64,000 nt of DNA from Candidatus Multivoradales bacterium (GTDB lineage Bacteria > Acidobacteriota > Thermoanaerobaculia > Multivoradales > JAHEKO01), in NCBI GenBank assembly GCA_965223155.1, contig CBDCVR010000015.1, positions 832,001 through 896,000 on the forward strand. Reading direction: 5' to 3'. Positions within the stretch are counted from its first letter, which is position 1, and each line of letters starts with the position of its first letter. This document shows positions 1 through 53,800 of the stretch, piece after piece. Position numbers and translations under genes: made by a program. The notes under the pieces are model-generated. The model worked only from the letters and a program-made list of their open reading frames with translations, ran no database searches and had not been told where the DNA came from.

Positions 1-152
1 TGAGACGGCCTGCGGCAGGTCGAAACCCAGCCGGCTTCTCGGGTTGCGTCAAGCGCGGCCTCCACGGCTAGAATTCCGCTGCGAGCCGATGCCTCGGTTC
101 CCCCAACCCGATCCAGTCGACCGACCTCCAGACCGGCCCGGACCCAAATCCG

Positions 153-12266: not shown

Positions 12267-12388
12267 CGGGAAAGTCTAGCAGCCCGAAGGAGGGGTCCAG
12301 AGGGGCAGGCCAAGACCGAAACCGGAAGGCCCAGCTCGCTCGGCGCGACAGCGATCCGCGGCCAAGCCGAGCCGGCCGCCGGCCGAGA

Positions 12389-26629: not shown

Positions 26630-28687
26630 CTAGGCGGCATCCGAGCGCACGACCCATACCAGGCCGGCCACGGCGAGCACCGTGCAGAGTCCGGCGGGAC
26701 CGGGCGCGCCGAGGATCCAGAAGCCGATTCCAAAGAGGCTGCCGAAGACCACGACCAGGCCGGCCGCGAAACGGGTCAGCATCGCACCGGCCCGATCCGG
26801 CGAGGAATCGACATACGGGCGCCAGCCCGGACCCGCCGGACGCACCTTGCGAGCGAAGGCCTCGAGCACCCGCCGATCGTTCTGCGGTCCCCAGATCGCC
26901 GTCGGCAGCCACGCCGTCAGGCTCACCGCAGCGACGATGAGAATCTTCGCCCAGGCGGCGATCTCGGTCACGAAGAAGGGGTTGGTGCCTCCCAGGAGCC
27001 GCGGCGCGCCGCCGAGCTCGAGCCCTAGCGCGGTCAGTGTCGTGGCCCCAAGCGCGGCGAGCTCGGCATGGGCCGTCACTCGCGGCCAGTACCAGCGCAG
27101 GGCGGTTACACTGCCCAGGCCGGCGCCAAGGGTAATGAGAAAGCGCCACACCGTGGCGATGTTCTGGATGAAGAGCGCTGTACTGCCCGCCAGAACCGCG
27201 ATCAGCACGATCGCGATCCGGCTCGCCGTGACGTAGTGGGCCGGCGCGGCATCGCGCTTCACGAACCTCTGGTAGAGATCCCGGACAAGATACGACGCGC
27301 CCCAGTTGGTATGGGTGTCGATCGTGCTCATGAAGGCCGCCAGCAGGCTGGCGACGACCAGTCCCAGAATTCCGGAGGGCAAGTTCCTCCGCATCATGAG
27401 CGGATACGCCATCTCGCGATCGTCCAAGGTCAGGAGAATCGAGCCCAGCTCGAACCTCCGAACCGTCCCGCAGACGGCCTCGAGCGGCAGCTCGCCGCCA
27501 CCGCGCCAGCCGGACAGTTCGAACGGCGACCGGCCCGGCACAGGTTCTCCGCCGATCTCGAGGCGGCATGACGACGGCAGGCCGGTAACGACGAGCCGTG
27601 CGTCTCGTCCGAGATCGATCGGTCCGGGCGAGACGACAACTGTGGCCGCGCCCTCCGGAAGGGCCAGCTCGAAGCTCCGTTCCGGGAAACTCGTACCCTC
27701 CGTGAGCCCGGCCGGCTCCGCTCGCGGATAGACCACCAGCGCCGCCAGGGCGACCAGAATCCAGGGCCAGGGCCGGAGAGCGTTGTGGGCGATGGCGAAC
27801 CAAAGACTGGCACCCTGCGCTTCGCCCTCGCTTCGGCACGAGGCCAGACGCTGCACGATATAGCCCTGCCCCTCGGCCAGGCGCCACCAGCCGGCGACCA
27901 GAAGGACGACAAAGTAGATCCAGCTGATGGATCCCTCTCCGGAAGGCAGGAAGCCGAGAAGCTCCTGGGCTTCGGCGCTTCCCCCGACCGAGCTCTCGAG
28001 CGCTCCCAGCAGGCCCTCGCCGGACGTCGAAGCGGGTTCGCTCAGCGCGCCGACGCCGCCGAAGTCGGCCAGGACGAACCAAGCCAGCGCCAAGGCGCCG
28101 ACGACACCCATCGCGAACTGCACGAGATCGGTCACGACCACCGAGCGCAAGCCCCCGAGGGTCGTGTAGGCAACCGAGGCGATCAGACAGACGGCGATCA
28201 CGAACACCGGCTCGACCGAGAAGAAGGAGCGCGTGATCTTGACCATCGCGGCGATCACCCAGGCCATCGTCAAGCAGTTGACGAAGAGGCCGAAGTAGAT
28301 TGCCTTGAAGGCCCGGAGCACTGCGGCCGCGCGGCCGCCGTAGCGCAGCTCCACAATCTCCGCGTCCGTCAGCACACCCGACCGGCGCCAGAGCCGGGCG
28401 AAGAAGAACGTCGCCGCCAGGTGAGCGATCGCCCAGTTCCACCAAATCCAATTGCCGCTGATGCCGTCGGCCGCGACCAAGCCGGTGACCGCCAGCGGCG
28501 TATCCGCCGCAAAGGTGGTAGCGACCATCGAGGTTCCGGCCAGCCACCAGGGGAGGTTCCGGCCGCCGAGGAAGAAGTTCTCGAGATCGGTGCTGGCCCG
28601 CCTGGAAAAATACGCTCCGACCGCGATAGCGCAAAGCAAGTACAGCCCGATAATCAGAAAATCGATGCCGACCAGGCCGGGACTCAT
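26630..28687 (-). CDS. Sodium:solute symporter (SSS) family, with extracytoplasmic insertion
   Basis: FFLGGRNLPWWLAGTSMVATTFAADTPL, AAFMSTIDT..NWGASY. Confidence 0.9.
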   Translation of the reverse strand: MSPGLVGIDFLIIGLYLLCAIAVGAYFSRRASTDLENFFLGGRNLPWWLAGTSMVATTFAADTPLAVTGLVAADGISGNWIWWNWAIAHLAATFFFARLWRRSGVLTDAEIVELRYGGRAAAVLRAFKAIYFGLFVNCLTMAWVIAAMVKITRSFFSVEPVFVIAVCLIASVAYTTLGGLRSVVVTDLVQFAMGVVGALALAWFVLADFGGVGALSEPASTSGEGLLGALESSVGGSAEAQELLGFLPSGEGSISWIYFVVLLVAGWWRLAEGQGYIVQRLASCRSEGEAQGASLWFAIAHNALRPWPWILVALAALVVYPRAEPAGLTEGTSFPERSFELALPEGAATVVVSPGPIDLGRDARLVVTGLPSSCRLEIGGEPVPGRSPFELSGWRGGGELPLEAVCGTVRRFELGSILLTLDDREMAYPLMMRRNLPSGILGLVVASLLAAFMSTIDTHTNWGASYLVRDLYQRFVKRDAAPAHYVTASRIAIVLIAVLAGSTALFIQNIATVWRFLITLGAGLGSVTALRWYWPRVTAHAELAALGATTLTALGLELGGAPRLLGGTNPFFVTEIAAWAKILIVAAVSLTAWLPTAIWGPQNDRRVLEAFARKVRPAGPGWRPYVDSSPDRAGAMLTRFAAGLVVVFGSLFGIGFWILGAPGPAGLCTVLAVAGLVWVVRSDAA

Positions 28688-28723
28688 CGAGGCACAGGGT
28701 ATCGCCTGGGGGCAGGCGAGCCC

Positions 28724-28756
28724 AAACGAAGAAAGCCCCGGTCGAGCGACCGGGGC
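28724..28756 (-). terminator. Intrinsic terminator
   Basis: 9-bp stem (plus strand GCCCCGGTC 28735-28743 / GACCGGGGC 28748-28756) with a 4-nt loop, followed by TTTCTTCGTTT on the minus strand. Confidence 0.75.
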
Positions 28757-28829
28757 CAGGTGGTTTGTTAGGTGGCGTTGGGCTTCCTAGTAGGGGCCCT
28801 TCCAGTGCGCCACGCGCGAAGAGGATTCC

Positions 28830-28874
28830 CTAAAGGGACGCCACCTCCATCAAACCGCGTTTCTCAGATACCAC
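28830..28874 (-). CDS. 14-codon small ORF MVSEKRGLMEVASL
   Basis: GTG start 7 nt after GGAGG within AGAAAGGAGGTGGTCCA; TAG stop at 28832-28830. Confidence 0.45.
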   Translation of the reverse strand: MVSEKRGLMEVASL

Positions 28875-28999
28875 TGGACCACCTCCTTTCTGGGCGAATC
28901 CGCAAACTGGCGGGACCCAAGTCCGCCCGATCCTCCCGACCGCCCAAGCCGTTTGGACCGCCGCGTCTCCAGTGCGAAGCCGCGGGCACGACTGGCTGC

Positions 29000-29028
29000 A
29001 TGTTGCAGCAAAGATTTTCCTCTGTCAA
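29000..29028 (-). promoter_or_regulatory. Putative sigma70 promoter for the small transcript
   Basis: TTGACA (29028-29023), 17-nt spacer, weak -10 CAACAT (29005-29000). Confidence 0.45.
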
Positions 29029-29080
29029 TCCTGGAATCTCCCTCCCTCATGCCGAGTTACGCCGACTTTGAGCAGGGCGA

Positions 29081-29998
29081 TCAGAACGGGAGCGGCTCTC
29101 CGCTGGTCTCGGTCTGCGCCTTGTGAAGTTCCTGCAGCCGCTCGGTCACCGGTCCTCGCGCTCCATCGCCGATCTGCCGGCCATCCACCTCGAGGATCGG
29201 GCTCAGCTCGCCGACGGTGCCCGTGGTGAAGGCCTCGTCCGCCGTGTAGAGCTCCGAGAGGCTGAGGTTGCGCTCGCGCGAGGGAATGTCGTTGTCCCGC
29301 GCCAGCTCGAGGACGACGCCGCGGGTAATGCCGGGCAGGCAGCTATCGGCGTGCGGCGTCTGAAGCTCGCCGCGGCGCACCAGAAACAGGTTGGTGGCGT
29401 TGGTTTCGGACAGAAACCCATTGAGATCCAACATGACCGCGTCGTCTACGCCGGCGACGTTGGCCTCGATCTTGGCCAGGATGTTGTTGATCAGGTTGTT
29501 GTGATGGATCTTCGAATCGAGGGTCTGGGGCGAATTGCGCCGTACCGAAGCCGTGACCAGCCGCACTCCCTTCGAGGCATAGATCGGCGCTTTCCACTCG
29601 GCCAAGACGATCAGGCAGCACCCCATGCGGTTGAACTCCGGGCTCATGCCGGAGGTGACCTTGGGACCACGAGTCAAGGTCAGCCGGAGGTGGGCACCGT
29701 CCCGCATGCCGTTGGCCTCCAACGTTTCGAAGATGGCCCCCTTGATCTCGTCGCGGGACGGCACACCGTCGAACGCCATGGTGTGGGCCGAGGCCTCGAG
29801 CCGGTCGAGGTGGGCGTCGAGCTGGAAGATCCGGCCGTCGTAGACCCTGAGACCCTCCCAGACCGCGTCGCCGCCCTGGACGACGCTGTCGAAGACCGAC
29901 ACCGAGGCCAGGTGACGGGATACCAGATCGCCACCCACGTGAACCTTGATGTCGGCATTGCGGGGATCCGGAAGCTCGTCCGGGCGGTAGCTCCTCAT
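29081..29998 (-). CDS. Aminotransferase class IV (BCAT/D-amino acid AT-like)
   Basis: GDAVWEGLR, KIHHNNL, LPGITR, ADEAFTTGT; AGGAG RBS before ATG 29998. Confidence 0.9.
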   Translation of the reverse strand: MRSYRPDELPDPRNADIKVHVGGDLVSRHLASVSVFDSVVQGGDAVWEGLRVYDGRIFQLDAHLDRLEASAHTMAFDGVPSRDEIKGAIFETLEANGMRDGAHLRLTLTRGPKVTSGMSPEFNRMGCCLIVLAEWKAPIYASKGVRLVTASVRRNSPQTLDSKIHHNNLINNILAKIEANVAGVDDAVMLDLNGFLSETNATNLFLVRRGELQTPHADSCLPGITRGVVLELARDNDIPSRERNLSLSELYTADEAFTTGTVGELSPILEVDGRQIGDGARGPVTERLQELHKAQTETSGEPLPF

Positions 29999-30008
29999 GC
30001 TGAGTCTC

Positions 30009-30737
30009 CTAGCCGGCCGCCCGAATGGCCCGAGCGTACAGACGCTGGTAATGAGGGAGGCACTCTTCAAGCAGGCCTTCGAGGTGCTCGGGAACGGGTT
30101 CGGCCTTGGGTCGGTAGGGCATGAAGCCGGTCGAGCGGTGCACGTTCCGGTACCAGTGGGGCGCCCAGACCCCGTCCTCGGCTCTGGCGCCCGCCGGCCA
30201 GGACAGCATCGCGGGATCGAAGTCGATTCCGATCGCCTGGCACAATCGCTCGAGCACCCCGGCCGGATCCAACAGAATCTCGCGCGAATCCACGACCGGC
30301 GGATCCTGGCCGCGGGCGACGAGGTCATCCAGGAGCTCGGTCTGATCGGCCAGCCCGGTGTCTCCGATCCCCGGATTCGGTACCTGGTGCACCAGCGAGG
30401 TCAGGACTTCGGCCGGATCCCGGATCAAGAGCACGTTGACGGTCTCATCCAGAAACGAGGGTTCGAGACCGCGCAAGTGGTGGGCCATCTGCTTGAAGAA
30501 CAGAACCGCCCGGTCGCACGGTCCCAGCACGACCTCTCGCACCACTCGCTCGCCGTCGGTGTCCATCGCGGCCAGCACCTCGTCACGGCCGGGGTGGTCG
30601 ACACCAGACAAAGCGAGGTAGTAGCCGTAGAGCGGCTCGTCCACGACCCGTGTGTCCGAGCGCTGCGCGAACGAGTACATGAGCGCCGTCGAGACATTGC
30701 GCGGACCCGACCAGAGACACAGCCGTAGGACCGACAT
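30009..30737 (-). CDS. Sulfotransferase-like P-loop domain protein partnered with class IV aminotransferase
   Basis: WSGPRNVSTALMYSF, DEPLY, FFKQM, LIRDP, GVWAPHWY. Confidence 0.82.
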   Translation of the reverse strand: MSVLRLCLWSGPRNVSTALMYSFAQRSDTRVVDEPLYGYYLALSGVDHPGRDEVLAAMDTDGERVVREVVLGPCDRAVLFFKQMAHHLRGLEPSFLDETVNVLLIRDPAEVLTSLVHQVPNPGIGDTGLADQTELLDDLVARGQDPPVVDSREILLDPAGVLERLCQAIGIDFDPAMLSWPAGARAEDGVWAPHWYRNVHRSTGFMPYRPKAEPVPEHLEGLLEECLPHYQRLYARAIRAAG

Positions 30738-34150: not shown

Positions 34151-36111
34151 GCCAAGAACGAGCATCTGAGCTCCCATCCGAGATGGCGCCGTCGCGCTAC
34201 ATCGAGAAGGTCCGTCTCGCGACCGGAGAGATCCTGGAGGACGCGATCGAACCGCGGCGGCTCTTGGTGCACACCCACCGGGACTACCACGTCGTCGATA
34301 TCCACGCTCGCTACATGATGAGCCGGGTGGTCAAGGCCACCGGCGACGAGAGCGCGGCCCGGCGCAAGATGAAGGAGATGCGCGCCCTCGGCCAGCGCAC
34401 CTCGCGGATGCTGGCCAAGATGATCGGCGAAGAGAATCCAGAACGCATCTCCAAGGCTCTTTTCGGCCTCAAGGATCGCGACTATTACTTCCGCTACCGC
34501 CGTCACCCTCTAACCGGCGACGAGATCGCGGCCAGGATTGGCGAGTTGCGCAGGCGGGCCGCCGGCCAGCTGGAACGGAACCGCGAGGACGGCCGTCTGG
34601 CGTTACGCGTGCTTCTCACTGGGGGCACCGGCTTCGTCGGTAAAGAAACTCTCTGGCAGGCGGCTTCCGACCCCGAGATCGCCGAGGTCGTGGTGGTCAT
34701 TCGTCCCAAGACCATCCGCGACCGCAAGACCGGCGAGGTACTCGACGTGCTCGATCCCGCCGACCGCGGCAGGCTGCTTCTCGAGGAGCTCTGGCTCGCC
34801 GACCATCCCGACCGCTCGAAGTTTCGCTTCATCGGCGGCGACGTCGAGGAGCCCAACCTGGGGATTGCCGAGGACGTGCTCGCGACGCTTCGAGCCACCC
34901 TGACCCACGTCATTCACTGCGCCGCTAGCGTCGCCTTCGACGACCCCTATGAGGCGTCCTTTCGCGCCAACGTCAACGGCACGGTCAACGCGCTCGAGTT
35001 CTCACTCGGGCTCCAGGAGGCCCCGGGCAGTCCCTTCGTCTCGCACCTGTCGGTCGAGACTTCGTACATCCACGGACGTCAGACCAAGGAGGTGGCGCGC
35101 GAGGACGAGGTCGTCTTCCCACGTAACTTCTACAACAACTACTACGAGCTCACCAAGGCGATGGCGTCGATCGAGACCGAGCGCTTCATGCTCGAACGCG
35201 GTCTGCGGGTAGCACAGGTCTGCCCGGCGATCGTCATCGGTGAGTCCCGAGCCGGCAACAATCGCGGTGACACCAAGGTCGTCAACGCCCCGGTCAACGT
35301 CTTCGGTCGAGCCCAGCAGGCGATTACAGGACGGTTCGGCGAAGGCAAAGCCGAGCCCCGATCCGATCGATCCGGCCGGCCCGGCCGATCCGGCGGCCGC
35401 GTGCGCTGGCGGGATCGCTCGAAGGCGGCGGCAATCGCTCGCCTGGCGTGCATCTTTCCCGGCGATCCTTCCGCCCAGATCAACTTGATCCCGGTCGACC
35501 GGGTCGCCGCGGGCATGCTGGCCGCGCTCAAACGCGCCGAAGCAGTTGGCGAGCGCGTACACCTCGCCAGCGACACCCGGATCACCTCCAAGCAGATTCA
35601 GACCATCGTCAAGGAAGAACTTGGCGTCGACGTGCGCTTGACCGAGCCGACGCTCCACCGCACCGTCACCCTGCCGCTCCTGACCAAGGTCCTGACCCGC
35701 CTAGGCCAAGGACGGACCGCCAACGCTCTCGAGAAGCTGGGCGGCATCTTTGGCGGCTACAGTGAGTGGGGGCAGCCCGTGCACCAGGTAGGAAAGGACG
35801 TCGAGGTCCTGGGCCTGCCGGCCGAGCGGCCCCAGGCAGAGCACGCTTTTCGCATGCTCTGTCGCCACAACAAGTGGGTCCAGAACTTCGGTCAGATCCG
35901 GGACCCCTTGGAGATCTCGCGCCGGGAGCGCATCTGGTGGAGCTTCATCCAGGATCTGGAGCAGCGCCATGGCAAGCCCGCGGGCGCCATCCCGAGCGAC
36001 GAGTTTCTGACTGAGCTCGAGAAGGCTCTAGACACGGAGGCCTTCGAGGCGCGCCCGCCGGGCTCCCGGGTACCCTCAAGTCCGGCTCACGAGGGTTCGG
36101 AGACGGCCTGA
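34147..36111 (+). CDS. Extended SDR / fatty acyl-CoA reductase-like (NAD_binding_4) protein with N-terminal extension
   Basis: TGGTGFVG, HCAASV, YELTK (YxxxK), PVDRVA; ATGA overlap with the kinase. Confidence 0.75.
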   Translation: MSQERASELPSEMAPSRYIEKVRLATGEILEDAIEPRRLLVHTHRDYHVVDIHARYMMSRVVKATGDESAARRKMKEMRALGQRTSRMLAKMIGEENPERISKALFGLKDRDYYFRYRRHPLTGDEIAARIGELRRRAAGQLERNREDGRLALRVLLTGGTGFVGKETLWQAASDPEIAEVVVVIRPKTIRDRKTGEVLDVLDPADRGRLLLEELWLADHPDRSKFRFIGGDVEEPNLGIAEDVLATLRATLTHVIHCAASVAFDDPYEASFRANVNGTVNALEFSLGLQEAPGSPFVSHLSVETSYIHGRQTKEVAREDEVVFPRNFYNNYYELTKAMASIETERFMLERGLRVAQVCPAIVIGESRAGNNRGDTKVVNAPVNVFGRAQQAITGRFGEGKAEPRSDRSGRPGRSGGRVRWRDRSKAAAIARLACIFPGDPSAQINLIPVDRVAAGMLAALKRAEAVGERVHLASDTRITSKQIQTIVKEELGVDVRLTEPTLHRTVTLPLLTKVLTRLGQGRTANALEKLGGIFGGYSEWGQPVHQVGKDVEVLGLPAERPQAEHAFRMLCRHNKWVQNFGQIRDPLEISRRERIWWSFIQDLEQRHGKPAGAIPSDEFLTELEKALDTEAFEARPPGSRVPSSPAHEGSETA

Positions 36112-50891: not shown

Positions 50892-53800
50892 CTACTCCGG
50901 CTGCCAGGCCGGTATCCGGCCCGGCGTCCAGGGTGCGCCCGCGGCTTCCATCTCGGCCTCGAGCTCGCCGAGATCCTCCTCGACCAATGCCCTGAGCGCG
51001 CCAAGAACCGGCTCGAACGCCTCGGCGGCGATGTCGTAGGCGCGCCGGTGGGTGGCGGTGGGCGCCGAGCTCGACGTCCAGCTGCCGCCCACGGCACGGC
51101 CGATCCGGGCCGAGATCGAAGGCGGCGTGGGCTCGAAGCGGCGGGAGACGGTCCGGTCTCCCTGAAGCGAGACCTTGAGGTCCTCGAGGCGGGTTTCGAG
51201 ATCTTCGAGCCGTGCCACCCAAGCCTCGCTTTCGGTCGGCGTGTCGAGAGCGGCGCGGCGCAGGTGCTGGATCCGGGTTTCGGTCTCTCCGACCACGCGG
51301 TTGGCGCCCTGGACCGCCCGCTGCAAGCGGGCGAGCTTCTTCTGGAAGGCGAGGAGAGCGGCCTTGTCGTCGGCCGGCAACGAGACCGTACCGGTCGGCA
51401 CCGTCTCGAACGTCTCCGGCCCGGCGAGCTCGGTCAGCTCGTTGTTCTCGAACTTGGCGAGACTCACCGAGTAGGTCCCGGGAACCACCATCGGTCCCAT
51501 GGGATCGCTCGAGAAGGCGTTCCGCGCTCGCGGTGTGAGGCGAGCGGGGTCGTGCGGCGGATACCGAAGATCCCAGCTCACCCGATGGAGGCCCTTCTCG
51601 GCCGGACCGGTCAGGCGGCGAACGACGTGTCCGTCGGAGTCCCGCACGGTCAGGACGATCGCTGGATCCTGGGCGCGATCTTCGGCCCGGAGCTCTTCCC
51701 AGCTCGGGTAGCCGACGTCCTCGCCGGCTTCCTTCTCGGCTTCCTCGGACTGGCGCTTCTTCTTCAGGCTCTGGAACCCGTCCTCGAGGTAGTAGGTGAA
51801 GACCGCTCCGTGCGGGGGATTTTCGGCCGTGTAGAACGAGTCCCCCTGGAAGGCGACGTTGTTGTAGCCGAGCTCGAAGCTCTTCATGTACATCCGGGTG
51901 CGCCGCGGAGCGAACAGGATCGCCTCGGCTTCGAGCGCTTCTTCGCTCATCCGCCGGAGCGGCGAGTAGTCGTCGAGGATGAAAAAGCCGCGCCCGAAGG
52001 TGCCGACGACCAAGTCGTTTTCGCGAGCCTGGATCTCGAGGTCGCGCACGTTGATGGTCGGCATGCCGGCGAGCTTCACCCAGCTCGTGCCGCCATTGAC
52101 CGAGACGTAGGCCGCCCACTCGGTGCCGGCAAACAGGAGATCGGCCGTCTCGTGATCCTGGGCGACAGTGTAGACCGTGCCCTTGTCGGGCAGATCGCCG
52201 GCGATCGACGTCCAACTGCGGCCGCGGTCGGTTGACTTCAGAAGGTACGGCTTGAAGTCACCCGACTTGTGGTTGTCGATCGCCGCGAAGACCGTGTCAG
52301 GGTCGTGCTTCGAAGCTTCGAGGTCGCTCACATACGCCATCGCCGGAACACCAGGAAACGAGTCCTCGCGTCTCCAGTTGGCGCCGCCATCTTCCGAGAT
52401 CTGAATCAAGCCGTCATCGGTGCCGACGTAAAGCAGCCCTTCGATCAGTGGTGATTCCGAGACCGACACGATCGTGCCGAAGAACGAGGTCGATCGGTTC
52501 TTCGACACGGTGTCCACACCCCAGACCTTCCCCATGACCTCGAGCCGGTTCCGGTCCAGGTTCCGGGTCAGATCGCCGGAGACCGGCCGCCAGGAGTCAC
52601 CCCGGTCGTCCGAGCGATACAGGCGCTGCGAGGCGAAGTAGAGGCGAGTCGAGGCGTGCGGACTGATCGCGAACGCCGAATCCCAATTCCAACGCGGCGG
52701 ATCCTCTCCGGGCTCGGTCTGGGGCTTGATGTCGGTTCGCTCCCAGCTCTTCTTGTCGAGCCGGACCAGGCCGCCGTACTGCCACTGGGAGTAGACGATG
52801 TCGGGGTTGTCGGGATCGACCCCCGGGTCGAAGCCGTCGCCGCCCACGGTCACGTACCAGTCCCGGTTGGTGATGCCGTGCTCGGAGGTGGTCCGGGAAG
52901 GACCGCCCAAGGTGGAATTGTCTTGGGTGCCGCCATAGACGTTGTAGAAGGGCAGCGCGTTATCGACCGCGATCTTGTAAAACTGCGTGATCGGCAAATT
53001 GGCCTTGAAATCCCAGGTCGCGCCCCGGTCCCAGGTCTCATAGACGCCGCCGTCGCAGCCCGAGATCATGTGCCGGGTGTCGTCCGGATCGATCCAGTGG
53101 GCGTGGCTGTCGACGTGCTTGGCAAACTCCGGGACCTTCTCGAAGCTCTTGCCGCCGTTCTCGGACACATGGAGCCAGGTGTCCATCGAGTAGATCCGGT
53201 CCGGGTTCGTCGGATCGACGAAGATCTCGTTGTAGTACTGGGGCGAGCCCGACACGTAGTCCGAGCGTCTCTCCCAGTTGAGCCCACCGTCGGTCGAGCG
53301 GAAGAAACCACTCTTCTTGCCCAGCGACTCGACGATGGCGTAGACGGTATCCGGTGCCGACGGCGCTACCGCCAGCCCGATCTTGCCCTTGTCCTCCTTC
53401 GGCAGACCGTTTTCGATCTTCGACCAATTGGCACCGCCGTCCGTCGTCTTGTAGACGGTCGATTCCGGACCGCCGTTGATGAGCGTCCAGGTCCGCCGGC
53501 GCCGCTGGTAGGAGGACGCGTACAAGACGTCCGGGGCGCGCGGGTCCATCCAGACTTCGTTGACCCCGGTGTGCTCGCCGATCTCGAGCACTCGCTGCCA
53601 GGTCTCGCCGCCGTCGGTCGTCTTGTAGACGCCGCGCTCACCGCCGGCCCGCCAGAGCGGGCCCTGAGCGGCGACGTAGACCGTCGCCGAATCGCGCGGA
53701 TCCACCACGATCCGCCCGATGTGTTCCGACTCGCCCAGGCCCACGTTCTTCCAGTTCTTGCCGGCGTCCTGGGACTTGTAGACCCCATCGCCGTAGGAGA

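Follow-up and report, generated by a model that had tools for sequence, protein, structure and literature searches.

A predicted structured small RNA complementary to the 16S rRNA 3' tail in Candidatus Multivoradales, with relatives in a second phylum

Results

Genes and sequence elements at the locus

We analysed a 64,000-nucleotide (nt) stretch of DNA from a Candidatus Multivoradales bacterium (contig CBDCVR010000015.1, positions 832,001 to 896,000; hereafter the window). The subject of this work is a predicted small RNA on the minus strand that carries an 18-nt complement to the 3' tail of 16S rRNA, that is, an extended Shine-Dalgarno (SD) sequence called SD1, which runs directly into a 14-codon open reading frame (ORF). 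The RNA lies in a 393-bp intergenic gap between a class-IV aminotransferase gene and a sodium:solute symporter (SSF) gene. In order of transcription the elements are:

29081-30328, minus strand: class-IV aminotransferase gene (PF01063), the upstream neighbour
29023..29028, minus strand: -35-like hexamer TTGACA
29000..29005, minus strand: -10-like hexamer CAACAT, 17-nt spacer from TTGACA; the consensus of relatives is CAnnAT
28724..28994, minus strand: predicted transcript of about 270 nt, with its 5' end set by the promoter-like site, which is conserved, and its 3' end by the terminator
28874..28891, minus strand: SD1, the 18-nt 16S-tail complement AGAAAGGAGGTGGTCCAG, whose final G also opens the start codon
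28830..28874, minus strand: 14-codon ORF GTG..TAG, MVSEKRGLMEVASL, with the stop codon TAG at 28832-28830
28724..28757, minus strand: intrinsic terminator, a 10-bp GC-rich stem (28757-28734) followed by the T-run TTTCTTCGTTT
26630-28687, minus strand: SSF gene (PF00474), the downstream neighbour

Transcription would start near 28993, and a GC-rich stretch of about 100 nt separates the promoter-like site from the 16S complement. A search for sequencing runs listed four entries from one study, none of them an RNA run. An earlier reading of the window, made from its letters without database searches (the sequence-only reading), had placed at this locus a promoter-like site, the 18-mer, the ORF, a 9-bp inverted repeat (28846-28838 with 28778-28770) and a terminator, and all were recovered at those positions. 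When relatives were aligned, four elements stood out as conserved: the -35 and -10 hexamers as a pair, SD1, the ORF and the terminator. Of 27 order-level relatives, 24 carry the pattern TTGACN-16..18-NANNNT upstream of the RNA, as do 10 of 24 distant members. The terminator was kept in the aligned relatives, its stem (helix 9) being 91.5% paired in the whole-RNA alignment A1 described below.

The complement spans the whole presumed 16S tail

The genome contains a single 16S gene, whose terminal stretch reads CTGGATCACCTCCTTT followed by CT and whose 3' end is CTGGATCACCTCCTTTCT. SD1 therefore pairs with the organism's own 16S end at 18 of 18 positions, with one G-U pair, so that the pairing proposed in the sequence-only reading from the common bacterial 16S end holds for this genome as well. 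We searched the 4.0-Mb genome for the 18-mer, allowing R at the wobble position and up to one mismatch, and found only the SD1 site and the antisense of the 16S 3' end. We also predicted duplexes of the 16S tail with 22-nt segments sampled from the 64-kb window, 42,652 in all. The segment at SD1 gave the strongest, at -32.9 kcal/mol (-32.6 for SD1 itself), against a background with a mean of -7.4 and a standard deviation of 2.9 and a next-best site of -26.5 kcal/mol. The runner-up sites were at 35569-35596 (minus strand, -26.5 kcal/mol), 52876-52903 (plus strand, -26.1) and 12280-12304 (plus strand, -24.8). These are GC-rich matches of 12-13 nt, such as GGAGGTGATCCGG, without the layout of a GUG-initiated mini-ORF, and they were set aside. 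Two sites elsewhere in the genome, C15:34063 and C15:759047, were rejected likewise, being 12-13-nt matches in coding-looking DNA that also lack this layout.

The extent of the complement is maintained across the family. Taking the same tail, CUGGAUCACCUCCUUUCU, for all, each of the 50 members aligned has 14-18 predicted pairs with it, at -24.1 to -33.2 kcal/mol: 18 pairs in 31 members, 17 in three, 16 in 12, 15 in two and 14 in two. Most variants of SD1 differ by transitions (A to G, C to U) after which a wobble pair stands in place of a Watson-Crick pair, as in GGUGGUCC, GGGGGUG, GAUUCAG and GAUCUAG. In 37 of the 50 members the duplex extends to the final base of the assumed tail, and no nucleotide lies between its first base and the 3' strand of a pseudoknot immediately upstream. 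The spacing from GGAGG to GTG is 7 nt, inside the usual range. In silico, these data show a full-length 16S complement that selection maintains.

Distribution of the family and variation of its neighbours

A BLAST search with positions 28700-29080 (minus strand) matched 26 of 40 relatives at 70-83% identity over the core. Among 24 genomes of the same family 17 matched, and among 16 from other families of the order nine did. A covariance model, R1 (151 positions from SD1 to the CAAACC strand described below, built without locus L028), was searched against two phyla, for a total of 231 genomes (230 besides the window's own). In the window's phylum, probably Acidobacteriota, 24 of 151 genomes matched, all with at least 49.7 bits; these are the window's own genome, a congener and 22 genomes classed as 'same phylum' from ten families. 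Of 81 genomes from the second phylum, that of a Candidatus Krumholzibacteriia metagenome-assembled genome (MAG), 40 matched, 37 with at least 54 bits. Named members among the matches listed are a Thermoanaerobaculia MAG at 77 bits and the Candidatus Krumholzibacteriia MAG at 69.6 bits. The window's 16S gene is 88.4% identical to that of a MAG titled Thermoanaerobaculia. NCBI assigns this class to Acidobacteriota, so that the host is probably an acidobacterium from Thermoanaerobaculia or close to it. All ten second-phylum members that were inspected have the full architecture, with pseudoknot covariation such as GGACG/CGTCC included, and their ORFs are of the MSSDRCGLVEVASP type, with 14 codons in nine and 15 in one. 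A looser pattern, an extended SD followed by GTG, occurred in 26 of the 151 own-phylum genomes (28 sites, as compared to 6 in a reversed control), which again indicates a device that is patchy rather than universal.

A second R1 match lies in the window's own genome but outside the window (L172; G000:C14:656656-656763, minus strand). It scores 26.7 bits over model positions 41-151 and copies the 3' domain in diverged form (GGCTTGATGGAGGTGGC.., a sequence CCCCGGTAGCGGGG resembling the stop-codon hairpin, and AACCCAGTGCC..), with no 16S complement upstream. It may be a duplicate that has decayed or an RNA in its own right.

The genes that flank the RNA are not kept with it. The aminotransferase gene lies upstream in near relatives only. 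Downstream, the SSF gene of the window is replaced by a PAS histidine kinase gene in five near relatives (L005, L006, L008, L009, L011), and more distant relatives (for example L013, L014, L016, L021 and L027) have unrelated or opposite-strand genes, the distant neighbours including HSP90, an aldehyde dehydrogenase, ECF sigma factors, an FGGY kinase and a ZIP transporter. Taken together with the conserved ends, this variation shows, in silico, that the predicted RNA is a unit conserved independently of its neighbours, with a promoter-like site and a terminator of its own. The sequence-only reading had favoured a stand-alone RNA of some 270 nt with nested stems, and conservation in relatives, the variable flanks and covariation bear this out, the transcript itself being a prediction. 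That reading had included neither the 5' pseudoknot supported by covariation nor the spread over two phyla.

With regard to the upstream gene, its ORF is listed as 415 amino acids, the Pfam domain spans residues 156-380 only, and the equivalent open frames in near relatives are 314-332 amino acids. The true start of the aminotransferase is therefore probably further downstream.

A predicted pseudoknotted 5' domain and two long-range helices

A structural model was built from a partial RNAalifold model, an all-against-all scan of alignment columns, inspection, and pair counts on three alignments. Alignment A1 covers the whole RNA (27 sequences, including L028 of the unpublished genome G005, which was left out of everything later), A3 covers the 3' domain (50 sequences, fitted to R1), and A4 covers the 5' domain (50 sequences, aligned with MAFFT and not fitted). 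The elements of the model are:

28961..28985, minus strand: P1 hairpin, 28985-28981 with 28965-28961 and a variable apex; 5/5 pairs change on both sides, 86% of cells paired (n = 50)
28928..28960, minus strand: helix Ha, 28960-28954 with 28934-28928; 6/7 pairs compensatory, 94.9% of cells paired
28941..28945, minus strand: GGGCG, the pseudoknot's 5' strand, located within the Ha loop; pairs with 28896-28892
28909..28927, minus strand: hairpin Hc (GGCGGA..CCCGCC), 28927-28922 with 28914-28909; 6/6 pairs compensatory, 95% of cells paired
28892..28896, minus strand: 3' strand of the pseudoknot, CGCCC, immediately 5' of the 16S complement
28851..28856, minus strand: 5' strand of helix H4, GGTTTG (ORF codons 7-8); pairs with 28767-28762
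28838..28846, minus strand: 5' strand of helix H5, (A)GGTGGCGT, with the SD-like GGAGGTGG within the ORF; pairs with 28778-28770
28827..28837, minus strand: stop-codon hairpin with the stop in or at the loop; 4/4 pairs compensatory, 74-83% of cells paired (A3)
28786..28823, minus strand: internal hairpins H7 and H8, within H5; in the family 5/5 (H7) and 4/4 (H8) pairs compensatory (A3)
28770..28778, minus strand: 3' strand of H5, ACGCCACC(T), anti-SD-like, covering the internal SD-like word
28762..28767, minus strand: 3' strand of H4, CAAACC; pairs with 28856-28851

The model was well supported by all three alignments when compared to controls in which the pairing partner was slid by one column. 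In A1, 90.8% of cells were paired (55-56% when slid) and 26 of 52 pairs were compensatory. The corresponding values were 87.1% (53-54% when slid) and 23 of 27 pairs for A3, where the fit to R1 favours its structure, and 93.2% (49-50% when slid) and 20 of 23 pairs for A4 with the pseudoknot. In each alignment, none of 500 shuffles reached the observed percentage paired, the number of compensatory pairs or the covariation score; an additional measure for A1, the number of extra pair types, was reached by one shuffle in 500. Note that related sequences inflate shuffle tests, so more weight is placed upon the slid-partner controls and upon the variety of compensatory pair types. The minimum free energy of the whole RNA is ordinary (z = -0.79) and thus uninformative, and the support for the structure comes from covariation rather than from folding energy.

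The pseudoknot helix is paired in 95.6% of cells, with three of its five pairs compensatory (A4, n = 50). One pair changes from G-C to A-U in 10 of the 50 members, and variants among members include GGACG/CGTCC and GAGCA/TGCTC. These data show, in silico, a predicted pseudoknotted 5' domain (P1, Ha and Hc) that abuts the 16S complement. In the 3' domain, H4 has compensatory changes at five of six pairs in A1 and at six of six in A3, and H5, modelled as 28845-28838 with 28778-28771, is paired in 97.3% of cells with four of eight pairs compensatory (A3). H5 hides the internal SD-like word GGAGGUGG behind the anti-SD-like CGCCACC. In the window copy itself, H7 and H8 contain several mismatched pairs and are poorly formed. 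RNAalifold, run upon the raw MAFFT alignment, had proposed a GCG/CGC closing helix and an inward extension of H5; these were replaced by P1, the pseudoknot and the stop-codon hairpin because their pairs lacked compensatory changes, which the alternatives have. On the whole, SD1, the ORF and most of the stems noted in the sequence-only reading are kept in relatives by the homology and covariation search.

The same reading had envisaged a mutually exclusive switch, in which the segment just before the terminator either masks the SD or extends the inner stem. The stem extension (28762-28767 with 28851-28856) is well supported, since it is H4, with five of six pairs compensatory. The masking is not: 28758-28764 can pair with the SD in the window sequence, but an anti-SD-like word is found in the linker in only 3 of 27 relatives. 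This bears upon the reading of the locus as a ribosome-dependent attenuator of the symporter gene, composed of a leader peptide and a terminator. The arrangement is suggestive, as a tiny ORF and then a terminator lie on the same strand 46 nt before the symporter start. However, the gene downstream differs or sits on the opposite strand among relatives, the alternative anti-SD or antiterminator pairing is kept in those 3 of 27 alone, and the covarying helices do not compete with the terminator. From the variation in flanking genes we conclude that the RNA is not a cis attenuator of the symporter gene, and we regard attenuation, which the sequence-only reading had listed as an option, as most improbable.

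Constraints on the 14-codon ORF

The ORF is a nearly constant feature of the RNA. It has 13-15 codons in 49 of the 50 members (14 codons in 44, 15 in four and 13 in one), starts with GTG in 49 and with TTG in one, and stops with TAG in 37, TAA in 10 and TGA in two. All length differences are multiples of 3, indicating that the frame is under selection. On the other hand, codon-position variability over the 50 members is flat, third positions showing no excess. The codons that are conserved, GGT TTG ... GAG GTG GCG, coincide with the H4 and H5 strands and covary with the segments that they pair with on the 3' side, so that the peptide sequence looks like a by-product of constraints on the RNA. 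Accordingly the constraints on the ORF look RNA-level, as judged by sequence comparison, and in silico its second half is shown to be locked in two predicted long-range helices.

The simplest alternative is that this is an ordinary micropeptide gene, the 14-residue peptide being the product and the extended SD driving its synthesis. The frame kept in 49 of 50 members, the changes in length by multiples of 3, the conserved xxDK.GL.EVAS-like pattern and the usual 7-nt spacing would all be expected of such a gene. Against it, the variability shows no coding signature at the third position and the N-terminal residues vary freely. The codons for 'GL.EVA' are exactly the H4 and H5 strands, whose covariation with 3' partners means that RNA pairing accounts for the conservation, and a 100-nt pseudoknotted 5' domain is unneeded for a peptide. 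We consider a gene of this kind unlikely.

We also considered a structured noncoding RNA with a partner other than the ribosome, either a sponge or decoy for a repressor that binds ribosome-binding sites (RBSs) or a base-pairing small RNA (sRNA), the SD-like words then mimicking the RBSs of mRNAs. Such an RNA would fit an elaborate fold in which two SD-like words, SD1 and the GGAGGUGG of H5, are conserved, as well as the diverged partial copy of the 3' domain elsewhere in the genome, which lacks SD1. Complementarity of 14-18 nt that extends to the presumed last base of 16S rRNA and preserves wobble pairing is, however, far beyond the needs of an RBS mimic, and the in-frame ORF is left unexplained, making this alternative quite unlikely. 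A specific version, titration of CsrA/Rsm, was rejected: a search of the genome, which is 98.66% complete, gave no PF02599, control genomes being positive, and only two SD-like words are conserved.

Comparison to known extended-SD RNAs

A scan against Rfam 15 gave no gathering-level match anywhere in the window, so this RNA belongs to no described Rfam family, as the sequence-only reading had left to be checked. With an E-value threshold, the sole match in the window was a sub-threshold one to RF01867 (CC2171), an entry catalogued as an sRNA of unknown function. It spans 28819-28898, covering the SD word and the stop-codon hairpin but not the terminator. The RF01867 consensus begins GAAAGGAGGUGAUCCAGUG-UCUCAUUGUCA and is followed by a small ORF (sORF; MSHCH..). 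Evidently CC2171 is the same kind of RNA as the rre small mRNAs treated below. CC2171 and the window RNA share the SD word, the sORF, the long-range pairing of the ORF to a segment before the terminator, and enclosed hairpins; in CC2171 it is the 5' part of the ORF that does the long-range pairing. CC2171 differs in being 159 nt long and alphaproteobacterial and in having no 5' pseudoknot domain. It has been validated by Northern blot in Methylorubrum, where its function is given as unknown (bioRxiv 10.1101/2022.01.24.477521).

The only characterised RNAs akin in kind to the window RNA are the rre small mRNAs, among them rreB of the Bradyrhizobiaceae (Hahn et al., RNA Biol 2017, PMC5711450). 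This small mRNA, 165 nt long, is perfectly complementary to the 16S 3' end over 17 nt, the G of GTG among them, and has a sORF of 14 amino acids. It partitions into P100 and sediments together with 30S. Translation is weak, and replacing its start codon by a stop stabilised the RNA. Overexpression gave no phenotype, and the function was called elusive. Analogues with 16-17 nt of complementarity are named there in the Caulobacterales, Rhizobiales, Rhodobacterales (rreR, 18 amino acids) and Rhodospirillales only; their peptides are mutually unrelated and their genomic context is not conserved (PMC5711450).

As defined there, rre RNAs have at least 16 nt of contiguous complementarity to their own 16S 3' end, ending at the opening base of a sORF's GTG, in a stand-alone unit. 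In the window RNA the complementarity is 18/18 with one G-U; it ends at the first base of a GTG (49 of 50 members) that opens an ORF of 13-15 codons (49 of 50); and the unit, as known from sequence alone, has a conserved promoter-like site and terminator with variable flanks. The window RNA thus resembles rreB and rreR in having a 16-18-nt 16S-tail complement that ends on the G of its GTG start, a tiny sORF (14 amino acids in rreB, 18 in rreR, 14 here), a short stand-alone unit with a terminator (the transcript being predicted here), and a peptide conserved within its clade only, in a context not conserved across clades (PMC5711450). It differs from rreB in length, about 270 nt against 165 nt, with an additional 5' domain of about 100 nt and a pseudoknot abutting the complement, and from both rreB and rreR in a wobble (GGUGGUCC) that is conserved in most order-level copies of the window family. 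Binding to 30S and weak translation, established for rreB in that account, are here expected by analogy.

Two other systems offer partial parallels. The rpsU (bS21) leader of Flavobacteriales has an extended SD that senses the state of the 16S 3' tail (PMC9976891). The unusually long SD is shared, but that report describes the leader of a normal protein gene in organisms whose ribosomes sequester the anti-SD, with neither a tiny ORF nor a stand-alone RNA (PMC9976891). The window RNA, for its part, is a stand-alone unit with a pseudoknot beside its SD, and its helix H4 begins 19 nt past the G of GTG. Given the footprint of the 30S subunit, the start of H4 would lie at about the mRNA entry site of an initiating ribosome. 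In operator pseudoknots of the E. coli rpsO/S15 type, a pseudoknot likewise lies by the SD, and 30S binds without productive placement of the start codon. Those are cis leaders of ribosomal-protein genes that need a protein ligand, whereas the RNA here stands alone, and we treat the likeness as a lead only.

Other extended-SD mini-ORF loci

We also searched the contigs of other genomes for an extended-SD pattern (ARR+AGGAGG, the family having GAA+AGGAGG). This yielded at least 116 loci, which represent a sample and not a census. Only L064 and L110 are true members of the window family among the matches listed; loci that share the SD word alone score 15-29 bits on R1.

A second, shorter extended-SD family (L032, L034, L043-L046 and others, 46 among the matches listed) has record titles of Acidobacteriota, Acidiferrales or Terriglobia and 15-29 bits on R1. 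This RNA is about 115 nt long from a TATAAT-like -10 and has two small 5' hairpins, the latter of which (CGGC..GCCG) adjoins AGAAGGAGGTGATCCAGTG without any spacer; the ORF that follows has six codons (MRYGLR) and leads directly into the terminator. Eleven further loci among the matches listed (L039, L050, L056, L073, L083, L089, L094, L116, L121, L130, L139) have the 16S-tail complement and a GTG-initiated ORF of 11-13 codons with the pattern ..C..GLRx. Titles, available for seven of the eleven, are mostly Phycisphaerales, Phycisphaeraceae or Planctomycetota, which suggests another clade-specific family. Tiny ORFs also lie behind the same motif at nine loci among the matches listed (L052, L086, L102, L123, L057, L069, L140, L072, L088), with titles of Lujinxingiaceae, Bradymonadaceae, SAR92 cluster, Cellvibrionales, Anaerolineae and an Enterobacterales MAG, and with three titles uninformative; at L057, two tRNA genes adjoin the motif. 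These nine loci carry the theme of motif and mini-ORF beyond the clades named in PMC5711450.

The Rhodobacterales loci (L036, L037, L040-L042 and others, 20 among the matches listed) encode an 18-residue MSRK.. peptide and look rreR-like. The CC2171 model matches Rhizomicrobium, other alphaproteobacterial and Caulobacter loci (L077, L080, L100, L106, L111, L115, L129, L084) at 33-72 bits, and motif-bearing alphaproteobacterial loci at 47-72 bits, just below its 75-bit threshold. All CC2171-like loci fall below 75 bits, indicating that the Rfam threshold misses many apparent members. In contrast to mini-ORF RNAs, the Flavobacteriia-type loci L059, L062 and L085 have the same 19-nt motif before or inside ORFs of 82-83 amino acids (MPLR.SEVNR.LGKVDEL..), and the Streptomyces loci L035, L047 and L054 have it before or inside ORFs of more than 87 amino acids.

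Discussion

Our analysis indicates that the RNA is probably an rre-like small mRNA or sRNA, stand-alone and structured, that docks on the 30S ribosomal subunit. This agrees with the ribosome-binding sRNA or regulated micropeptide mRNA that the sequence-only reading had put forward, in that the RNA fits the rre small mRNAs in kind, judged by analogy with the published description (PMC5711450). SD1 would pair with the entire single-stranded 16S 3' tail and so dock the RNA on free 30S, and, to judge by rreB, the binding would be tight. The over-long duplex would take in the first base of the GUG and, together with the GUG start itself, may keep translation weak, as in rreB. An occasional translating ribosome would melt H4, H5 and the stop-codon hairpin; since it must open these elements, the life-time and conformation of the RNA would depend upon the ribosome, again on the model of rreB. 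The zero-spacer junction would allow coaxial stacking of the pseudoknot helix upon that of the SD and anti-SD, with the 16S 3' end capped, a detail that we propose with low confidence. The physiological output could be the peptide, titration or protection of 30S, or the sensing of free 30S.

Several observations weigh against this interpretation. R1 found no match in 127 of the 151 own-phylum genomes, including eight of eight classed as 'same class' and likewise the same-family and same-order genomes of that sample, and a family so patchy cannot serve a universal ribosomal need. The members are kin and not independent, and part of the structural support comes from an alignment fitted to R1. 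The 16S tail was checked in the window's own genome and in four MAGs, the same tail being assumed for the other members, and the mature 16S 3' end is that of model bacteria, assumed for these organisms. A consensus promoter scan gave no site at the promoter-like pair of the RNA; the scan is blank because CAACAT fits TATAAT at only three of six positions. Member L016 has no in-frame stop. With respect to known RNAs, the RF01867 match scores 16.4 bits (E = 0.32) against a gathering score of 75, and beyond the SD word neither sequence nor structure shows homology to rreB, rreR or CC2171, the peptides of rreB and rreR being unrelated to that of the window RNA, so that membership with the rre RNAs is by kind or analogy and not by descent.

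The sequence-only reading had suggested novelty. As to the kind of RNA this does not stand, since small mRNAs with an extended SD have been on record since 2016/17, one family of them being the Rfam entry CC2171. As to the family it does: in open-access papers and bioRxiv, we found no such RNAs described outside Alphaproteobacteria, the only sources being PMC5711450 and citing papers from the same laboratory. The kind is known, but the window RNA represents a more elaborate family that is new, has no entry in Rfam and occurs in phyla for which this search of the literature gave no earlier report.

What is known of the extended-SD small mRNAs (rreB, rreR, CC2171) comes from one bacterial class, and their function has been open since 2016. 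The kind now extends well outside Alphaproteobacteria, with a second, independently evolved and far more structured family of at least 60 members in two phyla. This family suggests a testable design rule, a helix ending exactly where 16S pairing starts, which recurs in the second, shorter acidobacterial family. Its comparative depth allows the needs of ribosome contact to be separated from those of a peptide, and it provides a natural RNA expected to bind the full 16S tail, which would be of use to structural biologists.

A bolder reading, tentative and rather doubtful, is that the two-phylum family acts as a clamp on the 16S tail, its pseudoknot helix and the 18-bp SD/anti-SD duplex joined end to end so as to bury the 16S 3' end in a continuous helix, so that 30S is parked until translation of the ORF releases it. 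The parked 30S would be initiation-incompetent and possibly protected from exonucleases, and translation of the 14 codons would unzip the long-range helices as a built-in step of release or turnover. If this is true, then together with the Planctomycetota-, Bradymonadales- and Cellvibrionales-titled records it would mean that tail-docking RNAs are a general bacterial device and not an alphaproteobacterial curiosity.

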